Counted from the first letter of the stretch, positions 21,246 to 64,000 are shown. The stretch: 64,000 nt of DNA from an uncultured Candidatus Saccharibacteria bacterium (GCA_964470995.1 CAYYEP010000004.1:2846-66845), one strand, 5' to 3'. Notes: generated by a model from the sequence alone, not told the origin. Numbers and translations: made by a program.

Positions 21246-21520
21246 GATGCTTGGAAAAACATAACTAAGTCGGCAATATTGCCGAATTCGGAAAGGCGAT
21301 CAAGGGATTTCTTACAGGCGAGAGGCTGGGCTTTATATTAATACGAAAGGCGAAAGCGGAGCGGCTTACAATACTATCAACAAGGCGGGACTGGAGTTGC
21401 TGGCAAGCTTGAGGTATAGGCCACCAAAAGATACGAATTTTGATGGTTTTTTTGGTATTTGATCGTTAAAACGAGTCCAAAAAGTTAATAATGACCCGGA
21501 ACCATCATCCAAAGTTTTTT

Positions 21521-21696
21521 TATCTGCCAGAATGCTTCGCCGGCTTTACCGCGGGGATGAATGGTTGCCAGTAGCGTAGCGGAGGCTATAAACAAACTCT
21601 TTTCCTAGCGCGTAGCGTAAGCGGAGCGGGAGGAAAACCTCGGGGCTTTGCCCGAGGCAGTTTATTTACAAGCTAAATCCCCGGCTTTAGCAGGGG
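21521..21696 (+). repeat. Copy A of a ~176-bp dispersed element (possible IS200/IS605-type end or MITE/REP-like element)
   Basis: It aligns by eye with the reverse complement of 36568-36747. Exact shared blocks are tatctgccagaat, cgcggggatgaat, gtagcgtagcg and ctataaacaaact. It contains the hairpin cctcggg-gctttg-cccgagg and ends 10 nt before the tnpA fragment. Confidence 0.75.
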
Positions 21697-36567: not shown

Positions 36568-36747
36568 CCCTGCTAAATGCAAGGGGTATTAAAGTTTGTT
36601 TTAATAAATTACCCCGGGGCAGAGCCCCGCGGTAATCTTTATGTTTCGCTTATGCTACGCGTTAGGAAAAGTTTGTTTATAGTTTTCGCTACGCTACGGG
36701 CAGTTATTCATCCCCGCGTCAAAGCAGGCAGGGTATTCTGGCAGATA
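36568..36747 (-). repeat. Copy B (inverted) of the ~176-bp dispersed element
   Basis: Its reverse complement aligns with 21521-21696. It has the hairpin cggggc-aga-gccccg at the position equivalent to the hairpin in copy A. It sits between the convergent kinase and regulator genes. Confidence 0.75.
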
Positions 36748-36904
36748 AATAAACTATTTTGGGGGTTAAATAAGACCTTTGCAAATTTTTCCGTGTCCGG
36801 GCGCCTTTTTTTTGAAAAACATCTTTGAGGTATTCTTTTAAAATATAGACTCGATCATGCAAAATCAAAAATCAACTTCGCAGAGGTTTTTTGAGTTTAG
36901 AGCA

Positions 36905-55068: not shown

Positions 55069-58000
55069 ATGCCTTACGATCCAAAAAAAAGTTTGATATT
55101 CCGTGGGGTTGATTATGTGCGGTTTATCCCGGCGGGGGCAATAGGTTTGGTTAAAAAAATAAACCAGGCGGTTTTGGCGGCAGTTTTTGTTTTTTGGGGA
55201 GCATTGGCGGCAATATTAAATTTTATGCCGGGATTGGGGGTGAGTTTGGGGCTTGACGCGCGCGCGGCGGCCGAATTGGGAGATTTTTTTTGGGGAGCAG
55301 GATTGGTATCGTTGGCGATGGTTATGGGGGCAAATCTGGTGCTTGGTTTTACGCGCCAGCGGTTAATGAGTTTTGGCAGGATAATCGAAGACGGGGTTTT
55401 ATTAGATGATAATTATCTTGAATATTTGGATTTTGAGGCGGCGCGCGTGTTTAAAATAACAATGGAGCGGGCCGGTGCGCCTTTTGCAACCGGCCTTTTG
55501 GAAAACATCATTAAGGGTCGCAAACTGGATTTTTCGATGCGCCGGCTTTGTATTGACGGGGCGTTTTTTGAAAAGATGGCGCGGGATTCGCTTAAAGAAC
55601 AGATGAAAGATGATTCGCCGCAAGCAAAAGCGGGTTTAAGCAACGATAACGCCAATAAAATTGAAGCGGTTCTAATCAGTGCGATTGACTTGGCGCGCCG
55701 CAACCAAGAGAAGAAGATCTCGATTTTTATACTTTTTTTGAGTTTAATGGAGATTGAACCCGCGTTTAAGGCGATATTGGATAAATATGAATTGTTGGAA
55801 GAGGATGTGGAATCGACGGTTGTGTGGCAAATGCGCATGGAAGCGTACCGCCGATGGCGCCAGCGGTATTGGGAGCGGGATAATTTGCGTTTGGCGCTGG
55901 CGTTTAAGCCGGTAGCGAGCTTGATCGGGGGCTATACGGTAACGTTGGATCAATATAGCCGCAATTTATCGGCGCATAATCCGTTGCGCCAGGGAGGGGT
56001 GGTATTGCATCAAAAGGAAATCGAAGAGCTGGAAGGAATGCTTTGCAAAGAGAATGGCAACGGGATATTGCTGGTGGGTGAAATGGGTTGCGGTCGTAAA
56101 AGCATTGTTCACAATTTTGCCAATCGGGTTGCCAGAGAGAACAGTTCGGGCGATTTGAAGATGTTGCGGATATTAGAATTGGATATGGTGGCGCTGATCG
56201 GTGCTTATAGCAATCGGGCTCATTTGGCGGCGGTGCTTGAAACAATATTTATGGAAGCGGTTAAGGCTAAGAATGTGGTGCTGGTGATCCCCCAGATAAA
56301 TAACTATTTTGGCGGTAAATACGGAACCGAAAAAATGGTGGCCGCGGATATCAGCGGCGTAATCAGCCAGTTTCTGAAAATAAAGGGGTTTCGTTTGATT
56401 GGCATTACCACCTACGAAGGATTGCACGGGTCGATTGAGCCCGCGGCCGATGCGGCGGCGCTTTTTACAAAGATTGAGGTAGCACCAGCGGGATCGGCCG
56501 ATGCGATACGCGTTTTAAAAGAGCTAAGCTTGCGGCTGGAAAAGAAAAATAGGTTGTTTATTCCGATAACCACTTTAAAAGAGATAGTTAAACTTTGTGA
56601 TTACTTTTTGGGTGACCGGGCGTTTCCGTTAAAGGCGGTTAATCTTTTGGATGAGGTGATTGCCAACAAAATGAGCCATCCGGGCATTTTACGGGCGATT
56701 ATGCCTGGAGATATAGATATGTTTTTCTCGCGTAAATATGAGGTGCCGGCCGGGATAGCGGGTGTTAAAGAAAAGGAAATTTTGCTTAATCTTGAAGATC
56801 ACATTCATGAAGGATTGATCAACCAAAAAGAAGCTGTGGAGGAATTGGCTAACGCATTGCGACGGGCGCGGGCTGAGATCAAGAAGCGCAAACGAACAAT
56901 TGGTAATTTTCTGTTCTTGGGGCCGACGGGAAGCGGTAAAACCGAGACGGCTAAACAGCTGGCGCGGGTTTATTTTGGGTCGGAGAAAAATATGATCAAG
57001 CTTAATATGGCCGAATATCAGACGGCGGAATCAATCAATAAGCTGTTGGGAAGCGCGGGGACGGCGGGGTTGCTGACTACGGCGGTGCGGGAAAATCCGT
57101 TTTCGCTTATTTTAGTTGATGAAATTGAAAAGGCTGATAAGGGGGTACTTGATCTTTTTTTGAACATTTTTGACGAAGGCGAACTGGCCGACGGTATGGG
57201 TAAGATTGTCGATTTTCGGCATACGATAATCATTGCGACATCGAATGCGGGTGCCGAGTACATCAAGGAAGCGGTGGAGCGCGGCAGTACGATGCGGAAT
57301 CTTAAGGATACAATGCTGGATAACCTGATGCGGCGCAATGTTTTTAAGCCGGAATTTTTGAATCGTTTCGATGCGATTGTGCTTTACAGGCCGTTGAACC
57401 GCGAAGAAATGAAACAGGTGGCCGGATTAATGGTCAAGGATATTAAGGACAGATTGCGCGATAAGCGGATCGAGCTGGTGGTGACCGATGAATTGTTGGC
57501 GGGTCTTGGCAAGATCGGATTTGATCCGGTATTCGGCGGCCGGGCAATGCGCCGCGCGGTACAGGATAAGATTGAAAACGCAGTGGCGCGGGCGTTGTTG
57601 CTGGAGAGGATAAAATCGGGAGATATTTGCGAGTTTGATCCAAAAAGCTGGGAATTGCTGGTAGGGGAGGAACGACGCAAACATTATGACAATAATGTTA
57701 ATGTCGTTGAAGGAGATGATCCGATTGCAAAGATATTGTTGCGGCTGGAGGACCGTATCCATGAGGGGTTGATCGACCAAGAAGAAGCGGTTAAGGAATT
57801 GGCTAATGCATTGCGACGGGCGCATGCTAATTTGAAAGAGCGAAAACGTACAATTGGCTGTTTCCTTTTTTTGGGGCCGACGGGGTGCGGAAAAACCGAG
57901 ACGGCTAAACAGCTGGCGCGGGTGTATTACGGTTCGGAGAGTAATATGGTTCGTTTGGATATGGCCGAATACCAGACACCCGATTCAATCGAGAAGTTGA

Positions 58001-58647
58001 TTGGCAACATTCAGACACCGGGATTGCTGACGACCCGGATAATAGAGAATCCGGATTCTTTAATCCTGATTGATGAGATTGAGAAATCAATTCCACAGGT
58101 ATTGAATATTTTTTTAAGCGTGTTCGATGACGGCCAATTATCCGACGGTATGGGACAGGCAGTAGATTTTACGAATACGATTATTGTTGCCACTTCTAAT
58201 GCGGGTGCCGAGTACATTAAGGAGGCGGTTCAAAAGGGAATATATCTGGACGGCAAGTTTAAGCGGAATTTTTTAGATTATCTTCTTGGGCGGGGAGTAT
58301 TTACGCCGGAATTTTTGAATCGTTTCGATGCCGTATCGCTTTACCGGCCGTTGAATGCCAAGCAAATGAGACAGGTGGCCAGTTTGATGTTGGGCGATAT
58401 CAAAAAAGGGTTGGCGCTCAAGGGTATCCGGCTTGAGACGGGAAACGAATTGTTGGATAAATTGGTACAAATCGGATTTGATCCGGTATTCGGCGGCCGG
58501 GAAATGCGGCGGACGGTGCAGGATAATGTTGAAAACGCGATTGCCACCGCTTTATTGTCGCGTTCGATCCGCGGGGGGGATGTTGTGGAAATCGACCCTT
58601 ATACGTGGCAGGCGGTAGTGGTAGGCAAGACCGCTGAAGGAAAATAA
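55069..58647 (+). CDS. Membrane-anchored Clp/Hsp100-like AAA+ protein with degenerate D1 and two tandem D2 modules
   Basis: 1192 aa. N-terminal TM helices are followed by Clp_N-like repeats. D1 has GEMGCGRKS in place of GxxGxGKT and VLVIPQINN in place of hhhhDE. D2a (from aa 571) has GPTGSGKT, LILVDEIEKA, ATSNAG and FGGRAMRR. D2b (from aa 889) has GPTGCGKT, LILIDEIEKS, ATSNAG and FGGREMRR. Confidence 0.8.
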   Translation: MPYDPKKSLIFRGVDYVRFIPAGAIGLVKKINQAVLAAVFVFWGALAAILNFMPGLGVSLGLDARAAAELGDFFWGAGLVSLAMVMGANLVLGFTRQRLMSFGRIIEDGVLLDDNYLEYLDFEAARVFKITMERAGAPFATGLLENIIKGRKLDFSMRRLCIDGAFFEKMARDSLKEQMKDDSPQAKAGLSNDNANKIEAVLISAIDLARRNQEKKISIFILFLSLMEIEPAFKAILDKYELLEEDVESTVVWQMRMEAYRRWRQRYWERDNLRLALAFKPVASLIGGYTVTLDQYSRNLSAHNPLRQGGVVLHQKEIEELEGMLCKENGNGILLVGEMGCGRKSIVHNFANRVARENSSGDLKMLRILELDMVALIGAYSNRAHLAAVLETIFMEAVKAKNVVLVIPQINNYFGGKYGTEKMVAADISGVISQFLKIKGFRLIGITTYEGLHGSIEPAADAAALFTKIEVAPAGSADAIRVLKELSLRLEKKNRLFIPITTLKEIVKLCDYFLGDRAFPLKAVNLLDEVIANKMSHPGILRAIMPGDIDMFFSRKYEVPAGIAGVKEKEILLNLEDHIHEGLINQKEAVEELANALRRARAEIKKRKRTIGNFLFLGPTGSGKTETAKQLARVYFGSEKNMIKLNMAEYQTAESINKLLGSAGTAGLLTTAVRENPFSLILVDEIEKADKGVLDLFLNIFDEGELADGMGKIVDFRHTIIIATSNAGAEYIKEAVERGSTMRNLKDTMLDNLMRRNVFKPEFLNRFDAIVLYRPLNREEMKQVAGLMVKDIKDRLRDKRIELVVTDELLAGLGKIGFDPVFGGRAMRRAVQDKIENAVARALLLERIKSGDICEFDPKSWELLVGEERRKHYDNNVNVVEGDDPIAKILLRLEDRIHEGLIDQEEAVKELANALRRAHANLKERKRTIGCFLFLGPTGCGKTETAKQLARVYYGSESNMVRLDMAEYQTPDSIEKLIGNIQTPGLLTTRIIENPDSLILIDEIEKSIPQVLNIFLSVFDDGQLSDGMGQAVDFTNTIIVATSNAGAEYIKEAVQKGIYLDGKFKRNFLDYLLGRGVFTPEFLNRFDAVSLYRPLNAKQMRQVASLMLGDIKKGLALKGIRLETGNELLDKLVQIGFDPVFGGREMRRTVQDNVENAIATALLSRSIRGGDVVEIDPYTWQAVVVGKTAEGK

Positions 58648-60431: not shown

Positions 60432-61403
60432 ATGGATATCATCGATGAATTAAAGAAGGCGAATTTAAAAGGAAGAGGCGGCGCGGGGTTTCCTGCGTGG
60501 CAAAAGTGGCAGATGGTAAAAGATGCGCCGGGCGAAACCAAATATGTTGTTTGCAATGTGTCCGAAGGCGAGCCGGCGGTGGCCAAGGACGGCCACATTC
60601 TGGAAAAATGGCCCGATATTGTGGTTGAGGGGATTGAATTGGCGATGAATGAAGCGGGAGCAAAAAAGGGTTATTTATATTTGCGCCGGGATTATTTTGA
60701 TAAGTTTAAAAATGCGCTGGCCGAAATTATCGGCGCACGGGCGATAAAAATCATCCGCGAACCGGGCGGGTATCTGGGCGGCGAAGAAACCGCGCTGTTG
60801 GATTCCATTGAAGGAAAAGCCGTGGAGCCGCGGATCAAGCCGCCGTTTCCGCCTCAAGCGGGTCTTTGGGGCTGTCCCACTTTGATCAATAATTTGGAGA
60901 CCTTGTATTTTGCGGCAAGGATTGTCTGCGGCGAATATAAAAATACGCGCTTTTACACCATTGCCGGCGATTGCGCTTGCCCGGGAGTGTTTGAGCGGAG
61001 CGAAAGCTTGACAATCAAGGAAATTTTGGAAAAGACCGGCAATCTGCCGCAATTCAAATTTTTTGTGCAGGCCGGGGGCGGTGCCAGCGGCACCATTATG
61101 TTATCGGATGAATTGGAGGTTCCTTTGTCCGGCGCGGGATCAATCGTGATCTATGACAAAGCCAAAACCGATCCGCGGCAGTTGGGGTTGAAATGGATAA
61201 ATTTTTTCATCAACGAGAATTGCGGCAAGTGCGTTCCCTGCCGCGAAGGCGTTTATCGCCTGCGCGAGATTTTTTCAAAAGAGCCGCTTGACATTGCCCG
61301 GGCGCAAAGCATCGTCAAGCTGCTGGCGGTGGCCAGCTTCTGCCCCTTTGGCAAAGGCGTCGCGAATTCTTTTGGCAGTTTGTTGGAAAAAATAATCAAA
61401 TGA
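60432..61403 (+). CDS. NuoF/HydB-like flavoprotein subunit (FMN + 4Fe-4S), short form
   Basis: Motifs GRGGAGFPAWQKW, VCNVSEGEP, GEETALLDSIEG, PPFPPQAGLWGCPTLINNLET and NCGKCVPCREG. Confidence 0.8.
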   Translation: MDIIDELKKANLKGRGGAGFPAWQKWQMVKDAPGETKYVVCNVSEGEPAVAKDGHILEKWPDIVVEGIELAMNEAGAKKGYLYLRRDYFDKFKNALAEIIGARAIKIIREPGGYLGGEETALLDSIEGKAVEPRIKPPFPPQAGLWGCPTLINNLETLYFAARIVCGEYKNTRFYTIAGDCACPGVFERSESLTIKEILEKTGNLPQFKFFVQAGGGASGTIMLSDELEVPLSGAGSIVIYDKAKTDPRQLGLKWINFFINENCGKCVPCREGVYRLREIFSKEPLDIARAQSIVKLLAVASFCPFGKGVANSFGSLLEKIIK

Positions 61404-61786
61404 ATTATAAAGGCGTAATAATAGAAGAAAGCCTTGAAAATAAGGATATTTTAGATAAAATATCGATCTTAGCGACAAAAAAGGAAATTGTTACGGAAAA
61501 GCACAAAACTCCTTGGATAAGACAGTGGACGCTCCATACAGTGGAAATTGATTTGGATTCAGCGGAAGAAATTGCGCGCGAAATAAGCAAGTCGTTGGAT
61601 TCAATCCATGATTGGTATGCGGATTTCAAAAATGACAAATCCCATTATGTTGTTTTCAGGAATAAAGTTTTTAAAATCGATTTGGCAAAGCCAAAGTATC
61701 GGGACGCGATCGAATACGGGGTAAAACATGGAATTCCTTGGTATCAGCTTGATTTTTCGCCGGAAATAGAAGAATGGAAACGGTAA
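61400..61786 (+). CDS. Hypothetical protein (AT-rich insert)
   Basis: 128 aa. Its start overlaps the upstream stop (ATGA). No recognised motif. Confidence 0.45.
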   Translation: MNYKGVIIEESLENKDILDKISILATKKEIVTEKHKTPWIRQWTLHTVEIDLDSAEEIAREISKSLDSIHDWYADFKNDKSHYVVFRNKVFKIDLAKPKYRDAIEYGVKHGIPWYQLDFSPEIEEWKR

Positions 61787-61794
61787 TTTATTTT

Positions 61795-62297
61795 ATGAAA
61801 TCCAAAGAAAATAATTATGCGTTTATTGACAGCCAGAATTTGAATCTTGGGGTGAGAAGTCAGGGGTGGTTTTTGGATTTTTTAAAATTTCGCGTTTATT
61901 TGGCGGAAAAATATGGCGTGAAGGTTGCTTATTTGTTTATTGGCTATATTCAAAAAAATCAAGATTTGTATTCCAGTTTGCAAAAATGCGGTTATGTTTT
62001 AATCTTTAAACCGACATTGCCTGAGGGGATGGCAACATTAAGGGCAATGTTGATGCTGATTTGGTACTGCAAACGATGATTGAATTTCAAAATTACGATA
62101 AGGCCGTGATTATTTCCAGCGATGGCGATTTTTATTCGTTGGTTAAATATCTTTATGAGCATAATAAATTACGCGTGGTTATTAGTCCGTATCATAAAAC
62201 TTGTTCGTTATTGTTGAGGCAGTCGGCGAGAGAAAAAATGGTATTTATTGATAATTTGCGCCAGAAATTGGAATATACAAAAAACACCGCCAAATGA
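61795..62297 (+). pseudogene. NYN/LabA-like (PIN-fold) nuclease-domain gene interrupted by a frameshift at a G4 run
   Basis: Frame 1 gives NYAFIDSQNLNLG...VLIFKPTLPEG. The -1 frame continues from nt 62028 as DGNIKGNVDADLVLQTM...VIISSDGDF. The junction is at gagggga (62023-62029), and one extra G would restore a single ORF. Confidence 0.6.
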
Positions 62298-62387
62298 CGG
62301 AACATTTAGAGGTGTTTTTTATGTGAATTCTATTATAATTGTAGCAGTTTAATTTTTTTTGTCAAGCATAAATTTGGGACATGATAA

Positions 62388-62467
62388 TTAACGAAAAAAT
62401 ATGAAAATAACAATTGATAATCGGGAGGTGGAAGCAAGGGAGGGGCAGACAATATTGGAGGCGGCGC
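62388..62467 (+). repeat. 80-bp direct repeat, upstream copy
   Basis: It matches 63325-63404 at 78 of 80 positions (mismatches at 62411 and 62412). It covers 13 nt of leader plus the first 22 codons of the NuoG-like gene. Confidence 0.95.
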
Positions 62468-62484
62468 CGAAACTTTGCCGGTGA
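62401..62484 (+). pseudogene. Vestigial 5' fragment of the NuoG/hydrogenase-like gene
   Basis: The fragment MKITIDNREVEAREGQTILEAAPKLCR* compares with MKIIIDNREVEAREGQTILEAARENG... at 63338. Confidence 0.7.
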
Positions 62485-62688
62485 ATTTCAGCATTGTCAG
62501 AGCCCTTTCCTTAAAAGACCGGTTGCTGGTTTCTTCGCTTGCCCGCCTGCTCGCGGTCGGAATCGGAAGTTTGTGTTGGATAAAACTGAACAGCTACCGG
62601 AAATTCGCTTTTTATATTCCCTTGGATGTTGTATGATTGCAGTAATAATAATATTTTTCCGAATAGATAAGGAAAAATAATAAAGATT

Positions 62689-63138
62689 ATGTTAGGACCT
62701 GAAAATTGCATGGGAAGCGCCCCGTTGGAAGACATGGAAGAGGAATCGTTGAAAGAGGCGAAGGATAAGATGAGAGACGAAATAGTTTCCGAAGGTTTTG
62801 AAAAAGTCGAAATTTTCGGAAGCGAGGAGCCGATAGATCTATATGTTATCAGATTAAAATCACCCTACAAATGTACGGGGATAGACGGTAAGGAAGAAGT
62901 GAGATATATGGCTGATGCGATGATAGGTTTTAATGAGGAGCAAGCACGCAGATATGCGAGCCATACGGCGTTAACCAGGGAGGCTAATCACTGTGGCATT
63001 CTGGACGACGGCACGATCAAGCCATTCATGAGTCTAAGAAGTCTTCGGGAAGAACAAGAGAACTTTGAGAGGGAAAAAGCGAAACAAGACGAAATTGATC
63101 GGAAACAAAGCAATGCCGCGGAAAGGTTTGTCAAGTAA
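62689..63138 (+). CDS. Hypothetical acidic protein carried between the 80-bp repeats
   Basis: 149 aa with no recognised motif, followed by a 14-bp-stem hairpin. Confidence 0.5.
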   Translation: MLGPENCMGSAPLEDMEEESLKEAKDKMRDEIVSEGFEKVEIFGSEEPIDLYVIRLKSPYKCTGIDGKEEVRYMADAMIGFNEEQARRYASHTALTREANHCGILDDGTIKPFMSLRSLREEQENFEREKAKQDEIDRKQSNAAERFVK

Positions 63139-63208
63139 ATTTTTTGCCAAAAAATATTTCTGTCGCGCAAGGGCGCAATAACGGATGAAAGAAAGGGGTA
63201 TATTTCTC

Positions 63209-63240
63209 AACCAAAATCCGCCGAAAGGCGGATTTTGGTT
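63209..63240 (+). terminator. Strong hairpin / probable terminator
   Basis: aaccaaaatccgcc-gaaa-ggcggattttggtt (perfect 14-bp stem), followed by a T-rich tract. Confidence 0.55.
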
Positions 63241-63324
63241 CGACTTTGTTTATTTTCGGCAATATAGTATAAAGGAATTATGAGCTGGCTTCGGAAGTTT
63301 TGCGCAAAAATATAGATGCGGTTT

Positions 63325-63404
63325 TTAACGAAAAAATATGAAAATAATCATTGATAATCGGGAGGTGGAAGCAAGGGAGGGGCAGACAATATTGGAGGCG
63401 GCGC
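63325..63404 (+). repeat. 80-bp direct repeat, downstream copy
   Basis: See 62388-62467. This copy is continuous with the intact gene. Confidence 0.95.
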
Positions 63405-64000
63405 GGGAGAACGGGATTGAAATTCCGGCATTGTGTTATCATCCGGATCTGTGCGTGAAGGCAAATTGCCGGATGTGCGTGGTGGAGATTGAGGGGGTGG
63501 CGGCTCCACAGGCGGCCTGTGCGACAAAGATAAAAGAGGGAACGAAAGTGGTCACGCAAAGCGAAAATTTGACGGCGTTGCGCAAAAGCAATTTGGAATT
63601 GCTTTTGGGTCAGCATCGGCGCGATTGCGCCAAATGTATTTGGCAGGGCAAGTGCGCGCTGTTGAAATACGCGCTGGAACTGAAAGTTGATTTGAATGCC
63701 TATCCACTGCGCAATCCCGAGCCCGAAATTATCAAATTCGGGCCGATCATTCTTGACCGGTCAAAGTGCATCAATTGCCGCAATTGCGTGGATATGTGTT
63801 CGCGCCAGACCGGTTCCAAACGCGGGAACGAGGCTGAGTGCAAATCTGACGGCTTTTTGGAATTGGAAGGGCGGGGATATGAAAGCCGGATTTCGCCTTC
63901 CGCGGATGAGAAAAAAGATTGCATTTATTGTGCCCAGTGCGTGGTGCACTGCCCGGTGGGCGCGCTGGATGTGGAAAGCGCGGTGGAGGCGGTGGACGCG
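63338..64000 (+). CDS. NuoG/[FeFe]-hydrogenase-type iron-sulfur subunit, N-terminal part (3' end outside window)
   Basis: This ORF is not in the ORF track because it is open to the window edge. The translation MKIIIDNREVEAREGQTILEAARENGIEIPALCYHPDLCVKANCRMCVVEIEG is 2Fe-2S ferredoxin-like. It is followed by CAKCIWQGKC, CINCRNCVDMC and CIYCAQCVVHCP cluster motifs. Confidence 0.8.
   Translation, partial: MKIIIDNREVEAREGQTILEAARENGIEIPALCYHPDLCVKANCRMCVVEIEGVAAPQAACATKIKEGTKVVTQSENLTALRKSNLELLLGQHRRDCAKCIWQGKCALLKYALELKVDLNAYPLRNPEPEIIKFGPIILDRSKCINCRNCVDMCSRQTGSKRGNEAECKSDGFLELEGRGYESRISPSADEKKDCIYCAQCVVHCPVGALDVESAVEAVDA

Follow-up and report, generated by a model that had tools for sequence, protein, structure and literature searches.

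A duplicated [FeFe] hydrogenase gene start in the variable nuoF-hydA spacer of a Patescibacteria lineage

The gene hydA, which encodes an [FeFe] hydrogenase, begins twice near the end of a 64,000-nucleotide (nt) stretch of DNA from an uncultured Candidatus Saccharibacteria bacterium (GCA_964470995.1, CAYYEP010000004.1:2846-66845; the whole stretch is called the window here, and positions are counted from its first letter). A direct repeat of 80 nt, consisting of a 13-nt leader and the first 67 nt of hydA, is present at 62388-62467 (R1) and again at 63325-63404 (R2), and between the copies lies an 857-nt insert (A) with an open reading frame (ORF) of 149 amino acids (aa), ORF149. The locus therefore raises the question of how a gene start came to be repeated around a small gene. 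The original prediction supposed that an integrative element had entered the 5' end of hydA and restored it with a replacement gene end carried along. According to the present comparison of related loci, we hold with moderate confidence that R1 is instead the scar of two alternative spacer modules joined by recombination, and not the footprint of a self-mobile element.

The repeat, its empty sites and the insert

The two copies agree at 78 of 80 positions with a spacing of 937, and their two mismatches are neighbours within codon 4 of hydA (ACA in R1, ATC in R2). They form the sole near-identical repeat of at least 35 nt within the window, the remaining repeats being about 75% identical and intragenic. 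The 80-base-pair (bp) repeat, the frame of 27 codons opened by the upstream copy, the continuation of the downstream copy into the hydrogenase gene, and the presence of ORF149 and a hairpin with a 14-bp stem between the copies were all found as first described (Table 1). A patchy resemblance that had been noticed past the repeats stood only in part: 12 of 15 positions match in register in the window, but 10 of 15 do so against the hydA alleles of other strains (shuffling, P about 0.06), and the rest is at chance level, with 54 in-register matches in the 221 nt past the repeats. A longer decayed duplicate was accordingly rejected as an explanation, because the resemblance is at chance level apart from two private synonymous changes in the window hydA. 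These changes give GCATTG at 63429-63434, where every other strain has GCGCTG, and GCATTG equals the in-register bases after R1 (62492-62497); this match may be a short conversion patch extending beyond the repeat, or a coincidence.

An assembly artefact, which the original prediction had named as a possible source of the duplication, is excluded. The two-copy structure with the same spacing is present in OFEK01000288, in two JGI contigs, in GCA_034677985.1 (NCBI) and in DAOSDI010000003 (a GTDB representative, here L019). The ENA MEGAHIT contig k141_167116 has two copies as well, and single k-mers would cover the 80-nt repeat if the final k was 141. About 20 short Logan contigs from separate sequencing runs contain the insert, and eight of the nine displayed terminate within the repeat, as is expected for a repeat at k=31. 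The source metagenome does hold many co-occurring strains, and short-read contigs do break at the repeat, so that strain variants of the hydA upstream region might have been falsely concatenated; however, this is hardly credible where the structure recurs in independent JGI, ENA (the k141 name suggests a k above the length of the repeat) and NCBI assemblies and in two diverged backgrounds.

Using a 24-mer from the repeat as query, eight metagenome loci were recovered. Among the loci compared (designated by L numbers), a single copy of the repeat is present in L008, L018, L002, L003, L004, L005, L007 and L009. The close relatives L008 and L018 (GTDB genome UBA6102) share the upstream flank of the window and carry one 80-bp copy without the insert, which is the empty site that the original prediction proposed to search for; the arrangement is thus not identical in all relatives. 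In L008, a gene encoding a NYN-domain protein (95% identical to that of the window) and a promoter flank (97.8%) precede one repeat copy, which continues into hydA (97.8%). The layout of L018 is the same, and its single copy equals R1 at 80 of 80 positions; for both loci, the NYN gene and promoter flank are about 95-98% identical to those of the window. In L002, L003, L004, L005, L007 and L009, the single copy stands behind upstream sequences other than that of the window, and the left edge of the repeat is the point where alternative upstream regions converge on a common leader. The 937-bp unit, which comprises A and one copy of the repeat, is a discrete presence/absence polymorphism with its limits exactly at the repeat. 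That the insert is bounded by the repeat and leaves an intact gene at the downstream copy was also correctly predicted, and a promoter-like site lies inside the insert.

A second type of locus, L006, carries the same insert in another background. Between the window and the L006 type there are no differences at 62434-63000 and 63034-63347 and three differences within ORF149, whereas the promoter flank is 75.6% and hydA 88-91% identical. The 857-nt insert is consequently 99.6% identical between two genomes whose flanks differ by 11-24%, and the edges of the identity block fall inside R1 and R2. The contrast between a near-identical block and diverged flanks indicates that the ancestry of the insert is much more recent than that of the flanks. 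In addition, the joint between R1 and the 221-nt stretch that leads to ORF149 (A_left; joint at 62467/62468) is identical in the window, L006, L010-L012, L019, L028 and the Logan contigs, which argues that it was made once.

The codon-4 alleles of the two copies (R1 and R2 in this order) are ACA and ATC in the window, ATC and ACA in the L006 type, and ATC and ATC in L012, and both alleles occur at empty sites. We considered ACA as the allele of an element and ATC as that of the chromosome, with variable crossovers between them, and dropped this idea, since the empty site L018 has ACA and GAA, the same as R1. Because the L018 copy is identical to R1, the allele patterns show reshuffling and cannot map crossover points.

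ORF149 and the case for an integrative element

No match to ORF149 was found in Pfam, PHROG, PADLOC, NCBIfam or PDB sequences, and no PDB structure significantly resembled the fold of its AlphaFold model (pLDDT 77). Two homologues emerged from a full HMMER scan of 1.84 billion representatives and a third from a profile search, so that three are known from collections of 1.8-5.8 billion proteins: P0005 (42% identity), P0006 (31%) and P0007 (50%). In all three cases, which belong to other Patescibacteria lineages, hydA lies directly downstream. It had been suggested that further copies of the 149-aa gene might be flanked by unrelated gene starts, and the outcome was the opposite. Because all homologues adjoin hydA, the gene start on the insert is a native neighbour of ORF149 and not a targeting device. 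To judge by gene order, ORF149, the terminator-like hairpin, the promoter-like site and the hydA start together are a native version of the hydA upstream region, not arbitrary cargo.

The surroundings of the homologues are similar in other respects. In L026, L027 and L033, a hairpin is present at the equivalent spot after the ORF149 homologue, as is a TAGTAT or TAGAAT -10-like hexamer (recognized by eye), and the final ~40 nt of A_left, the ribosome-binding region of the ORF149 family, are conserved with the same three loci. L027 has the order nuoF 3' end, strong promoter-like site, ORF149 homologue, hairpin, TAGTAT -10-like site and hydA, and no duplicated gene start was found in it; L022/L026 are organized alike. 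The homologue of L027 and L022 is flanked by intact nuoF and hydA without any stub. Heptamer tandem repeats (GTGATAA/GCAATAA) were observed between the promoter-like site and the P0005 gene at 5650-5710 of L022 and 1-60 of L026. A minus-strand ORF in A_left was looked up for contigs with another left context, and only one contig, already known, was returned.

The integrative element of the original prediction would now have to be a remnant or satellite, with the repeat serving as attachment (att) core for an integrase encoded elsewhere and with a replacement gene start carried along. Direct repeats at both ends, precise empty sites, an intact gene, and an insert near-identical in diverged backgrounds are all compatible with such an element. 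Integrative elements of the SXT/R391 group enter prfC at its 5' end and provide the gene with a new start; they possess a tyrosine integrase, short att cores, a length of tens of kb and transfer genes. The unit resembles them in its insertion at a gene start, the functional gene, the promoter inside the insert and the truncated duplicate at the other junction, but has none of the integrase, the short att cores, the length or the transfer genes. As first noted, there is no integrase within or beside it (the neighbours being nuoF, ORF128, the NYN gene and hydA), and Pfam, PHROG, PADLOC and NCBIfam gave no match for the ORFs of 62388-63404. The one gene of recombinase type, present at the locus in some relatives, encodes an IS200-like Y1 transposase, which is absent from the window locus and works differently. 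Furthermore, the unit occurs at one site only, its cargo family is native to that site, and the left edge of the repeat merely marks the convergence of two alternative upstream regions on the shared leader. Neither inverted nor arm-type repeats were found, nor terminal inverted repeats at the insert borders. Other copies of the insert were found neither in the 64-kb window nor by BLAST against phage and plasmid collections, and neither the repeat nor the insert turned up when viral contigs were scanned for exact patterns. An integrative element is thus a very unlikely source of the unit. An insertion sequence (IS) or a miniature inverted-repeat transposable element (MITE) does not fit either, given the lack of a border inverted repeat, the 80-nt duplication and the single copy in the 64-kb window.

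Phage morons, which are units of a gene and a terminator between conserved genes, offer another comparison. Like a moron, the insert places one small gene, complete with terminator, between two conserved neighbours, and relatives either have it or lack it. It differs in its chromosomal, non-phage context, in the flanking 80-nt repeat of a neighbouring gene, and in having a gene family tied to one neighbour.

Stacking of modules in the nuoF-hydA slot

The stretch between nuoF and hydA is a hypervariable slot in this Minisyncoccales/Patescibacteria lineage, as seen in a survey of about 25 loci. In L017, L020, L024 and L025, nuoF adjoins hydA with a spacer of only 23-79 nt. Elsewhere the slot holds a NYN gene (L008, L018, L002, L005, L007), an ORF149-family gene (L022/L026, L027, L033), a 177-aa gene (L021; split in L023), a 223-aa gene (L003), genes of 540 and 145 aa (L004), or an IS200-like gene with a Y1_Tnp domain (L003, L004, L006 type).

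Truncated ends of the border genes recur at this locus, with nuoF 3' stubs in L006/L019, L003, L004 and L033. In L006/L019, L003 and L004, stubs of ~105-115 nt, 80-89% identical to the true end, follow the IS200-like module, and the genes downstream of them differ from case to case (three contexts). In L033, a NYN-type intergenic/promoter fragment, including 19 nt identical to window 62349-62367, is fused directly to a 135-nt nuoF 3' stub (translation ...LLAVAGFCPFGKGVANSFGSL...), followed by an ORF149-family gene and hydA. L033 thus combines these two module types in the order seen in the window through a joint of its own, and records a separate stacking event. L033-L035 (ENA ERZ27315062/67/59) are whole contigs of about 900 nt, and their ORF149-family gene is that of P0007.

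Several side observations concern the IS200-like module and its carriers. The module (252 aa) lies after nuoF at 8526-9771 of L006 (oriented), 2819-4057 of L019, 340-1578 of L003 and 8834-11864 of L004; its gene has 61-nt flanking direct repeats of 77% identity (74% in L003), which were not seen in L004. The window has no IS200-like module, and the end of its nuoF appears to mix features of the true end with those of the stub. L019 (DAOSDI010000003.1, protein HOI97080.1) is labelled 'Candidatus Pacearchaeota archaeon' at NCBI, and this label is probably wrong, because its closest relatives are Patescibacteria (Minisyncoccales, Paceibacterota).

In the favoured reading, small-gene modules in the slot would be exchanged between strains through recombination in the two conserved border genes. 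Module 1 would consist of ORF128, the NYN gene, the hydA promoter and the first 80 nt of leader and hydA (R1), and module 2 of A_left, ORF149, the terminator, a second hydA promoter and the intact hydA from R2 onward. Stacking would then require a one-sided homologous crossover together with an illegitimate joint between R1 and A_left, that is, homology-facilitated illegitimate recombination (HFIR). HFIR integrates DNA with one homologous end (PMC3240628) and has been proposed for the orphan-module arrays at type VI secretion system (T6SS) and Rhs loci (PMC5361080). The most economical version has an incoming fragment of the NYN type with its homologous anchor in nuoF and its other end 67 nt inside hydA; once joined to the nuoF-proximal part of an ORF149-type recipient, it would leave the donor hydA start behind as the orphan R1. 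Because the incoming fragment would merely have ended 67 nt into hydA, R1 would be an orphan stub rather than an attachment site. The upstream NYN module with its truncated start as newcomer, and ORF149-hydA as resident, is an equally good or better account than the reverse. The same scheme would yield the recipient nuoF 3' stubs, in L033 and beside the IS200-like module, and accounts for every scar seen at the locus. Later homologous recombination, with crossovers in the conserved hydA start, would spread the 937-bp unit to diverged backgrounds, and recombination between R1 and R2 would delete the unit and return the locus to a single copy. Most strains share 93-99% identity over the hydA start in any case, so the 97.5% identity of R1 and R2 needs no recent duplication. 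Once the modules are stacked, transcription from the upstream promoter would pass through R1 and ORF149 and end at the hairpin, with hydA using the promoter in the insert, as consensus matches suggest. The repeat, the empty sites, the identity block, the variability of the slot, the hydA linkage of the ORF149 family and the remaining stubs are observations, from which we infer the recombination pathway, its direction and the use of the promoters.

A number of points weigh against module stacking. A pure ORF149-type haplotype (nuoF, A_left, ORF149 and hydA without R1) was not found in this species, and the trace of nuoF in A_left is faint (P 0.016-0.10). Measured frequencies of HFIR are low, and natural transformation would have to be assumed for this organism. 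Duplication of the shared segment is classically expected when a circular molecule enters by a single crossover (PMC3240628), and the Logan contig L029 reads A_right, R, A_left, like a circle or a tandem array. Either module might be the newcomer, and the empty sites could be secondary deletions.

The circular molecule deserves separate consideration. In this Campbell-type route, a 937-bp circle of A and one repeat copy, arising from a DNA fragment or by pop-out, might enter the 80-bp hydA start through one RecA-type crossover and behave as a recombinase-free, excisable cassette that moves between strains. Two repeat copies around A, with one copy at the empty sites, are the exact product expected; single crossovers of circular DNA in E. 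coli have duplicated 109-950 bp of homology (PMC3240628), and the identity block terminates inside both copies. As in the integration of a suicide plasmid, the homologous segment is duplicated on both sides of the insert and the event can be reversed by recombination between the copies (PMC3240628); here, in contrast, there is no replicon or selectable vector, the circle is putative (L029 only) and the homology is 80 bp. The contig L029 (Logan SRR24057988_19405, 965 nt) is equivalent to window 62569-63404 followed by 62468-62595, with a 27-nt end overlap, so that its ends overlap at the spacing of 937. Its sequence could span the junction of a circle or of tandem units, or be a false cycle in the k=31 de Bruijn graph. 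A low-coverage strain mixture may drop the flanks and keep the shared k-mers of A and the repeat, L029 terminates at a variant site, and the other eight displayed Logan contigs break within the repeat. Single-crossover entry also leaves the nuoF 3' stubs and the L033 joint, which lacks a hydA stub, unexplained; 80 bp is a short substrate for homologous recombination, and the original joint between the repeat and A_left would still require an illegitimate event. Taken together, we regard this route as rather doubtful.

An extension of it, in which the 937-bp unit is a recombinase-free mobile cassette that cycles via a small circle and re-enters diverged strains by single crossover at the hydA start, appears improbable. 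If it were true, the cassette would take the resident hydA promoter for ORF149 and give hydA a replacement promoter, and its traces would be the near-identity of the unit across backgrounds 11-24% apart and the cycle-like L029.

The left part of the insert bears on one further explanation. The stretch 62520-62590 of A_left weakly resembles the C-terminus and 3' tail of nuoF at the protein level (P 0.016-0.10), and is possibly a decayed nuoF 3' tail. Similarity of A_left to nuoF 3' ends was not significant at the DNA level, the protein-level likeness being weak. According to the explanation in question, the ORF149-type nuoF-hydA region was once tandem to a NYN-type copy, and a deletion then ran from hydA codon 23 of the first copy to the nuoF 3' end or spacer of the second. 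If so, a hydA 5' stub should lie against a nuoF 3' remnant, an expectation with which the weak likeness in A_left and the clear nuoF 3' stub at the equivalent position of L033 agree. However, an intermediate with two full operons was not seen among the about 25 loci, two rare events are required, and the likeness of A_left to nuoF lacks significance in DNA. Duplication of the operon is therefore quite unlikely, and stacking of modules by recombination is retained as the preferred reading.

Features of the locus and meaning of the finding

The features of the locus are collected in Table 1.

Table 1. Coordinates of the features between nuoF and hydA in the window.
Feature	Position	Strand	Basis or remark
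nuoF-like (HydB-type) flavoprotein gene, conserved left border of the slot	60432..61403	+	Pfam Complex1_51K, NADH_4Fe-4S
ORF128, variable slot gene, start overlaps nuoF stop	61400..61786	+	no family match
NYN-domain (LabA-like nuclease) gene, split by a 1-nt frameshift	61793..62297	+	Pfam NYN on second half
Promoter-like site TTGTCA-N18-GATAAT, directly before R1	62359..62388	+	consensus scan
R1, orphan copy of leader and hydA start	62388..62467	+	78/80 to R2; 80/80 to the single copy of L018
Truncated frame of 27 codons opened by R1	62401..62484	+	ORF list
A_left, stretch from R1 to ORF149, 221 nt	62468..62688	+	100% identical to L006
ORF149	62689..63138	+	family found only directly upstream of hydA
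Hairpin, perfect 14-bp stem, 4-nt loop, T-rich tail, terminator-like	63209..63240	.	window inspection and consensus scan
Promoter-like site in insert, TCGACT-N17-TATAGT, overlapping TAGTAT at about 63265-63270	63240..63270	+	consensus scan
R2, copy belonging to intact hydA	63325..63404	+	repeat comparison
hydA, [FeFe] hydrogenase gene, 5' part, leaves the window end, conserved right border of the slot	63338..64000	+	Pfam, NCBIfam

The nuoF-like gene scores under the cut-off of the NCBIfam model nuoF_fam, and the exact NuoF-like protein of the window had no match in the contig index. The hydA product carries the domains Fer2_4, NADH-G_4Fe-4S_3 and Fer4 within the window and resembles NADH-dependent [FeFe] hydrogenases in NCBIfam; its full-length relatives, 581-582 aa long, possess Fe_hyd_lg_C and Fe_hyd_SSU. 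The site TTGTCA-N18-GATAAT is conserved at the empty sites L008 and L018, where it stands before the one repeat copy, and is the putative hydA promoter position of the NYN-type haplotype. The promoter-like site in the insert would serve the intact hydA.

ORF128 is absent from L008, L018 and L002, and the L006 type has it behind a nuoF 3' stub; at 1075-1107 of L007 (oriented), just its first 33 nt are left, in an in-frame fusion to the NYN gene. The NYN gene is intact in L008, L018 and the L006 type (171-186 aa), and the frameshift in the window, a single gap in the alignment to L008/L018, leaves ORFs of 101 and 78 aa. Rfam searches in E-value mode for the locus and at the gathering threshold for the whole window returned nothing meaningful, and no tRNA genes were found. 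A MITE-like repeat of ~155 nt with GC-rich internal hairpins is present at 21513-21680 and 36603-36755 of the window in mutually inverted orientation; it has AGTTTATTTA at either end and no Rfam match, and a copy is inserted into the NYN gene at 3635-3812 of L009. The window also holds a gene for a 1192-aa protein (55069-58647) with an internal duplication of ~950 nt within 56791-58557, at 75-82% identity.

Among known systems, the orphan-module arrays at Rhs, contact-dependent inhibition (CDI) and T6SS loci (PMC5361080; HFIR, PMC3240628) are alike in that a conserved gene region is the homologous anchor beside which modules are added, displaced truncated gene ends ('orphans') remain as scars, and DNA from different strains comes to be combined in one mosaic locus. 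Unlike in those arrays, the border genes here are hydrogenase subunits instead of toxin genes, the modules are small orphan genes without a known competitive role, a 5' gene stub occurs as well as 3' stubs, and the host belongs to the Patescibacteria (Candidate Phyla Radiation, CPR), with the pathway deduced from comparison. The locus thus adds a case to a type of recombination product already known, from bacteria that have received little study.

For annotation, the locus gives reason for caution, because a duplicated gene start, an empty site and a near-identical insert can mimic an integrative element through ordinary recombination between haplotypes. The tiny family of ORF149, P0005, P0006 and P0007, found only directly upstream of an [FeFe] hydrogenase gene, is a candidate hydrogenase-associated factor and worth testing as such. 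Finally, the slot provides a clean and well-sampled case of how Patescibacteria gain, stack and lose small orphan genes between two conserved ones. In this group, with its tiny genomes and no cultures, recombination is little known, and the truncated gene ends left by each event are scars by which it can be dated.

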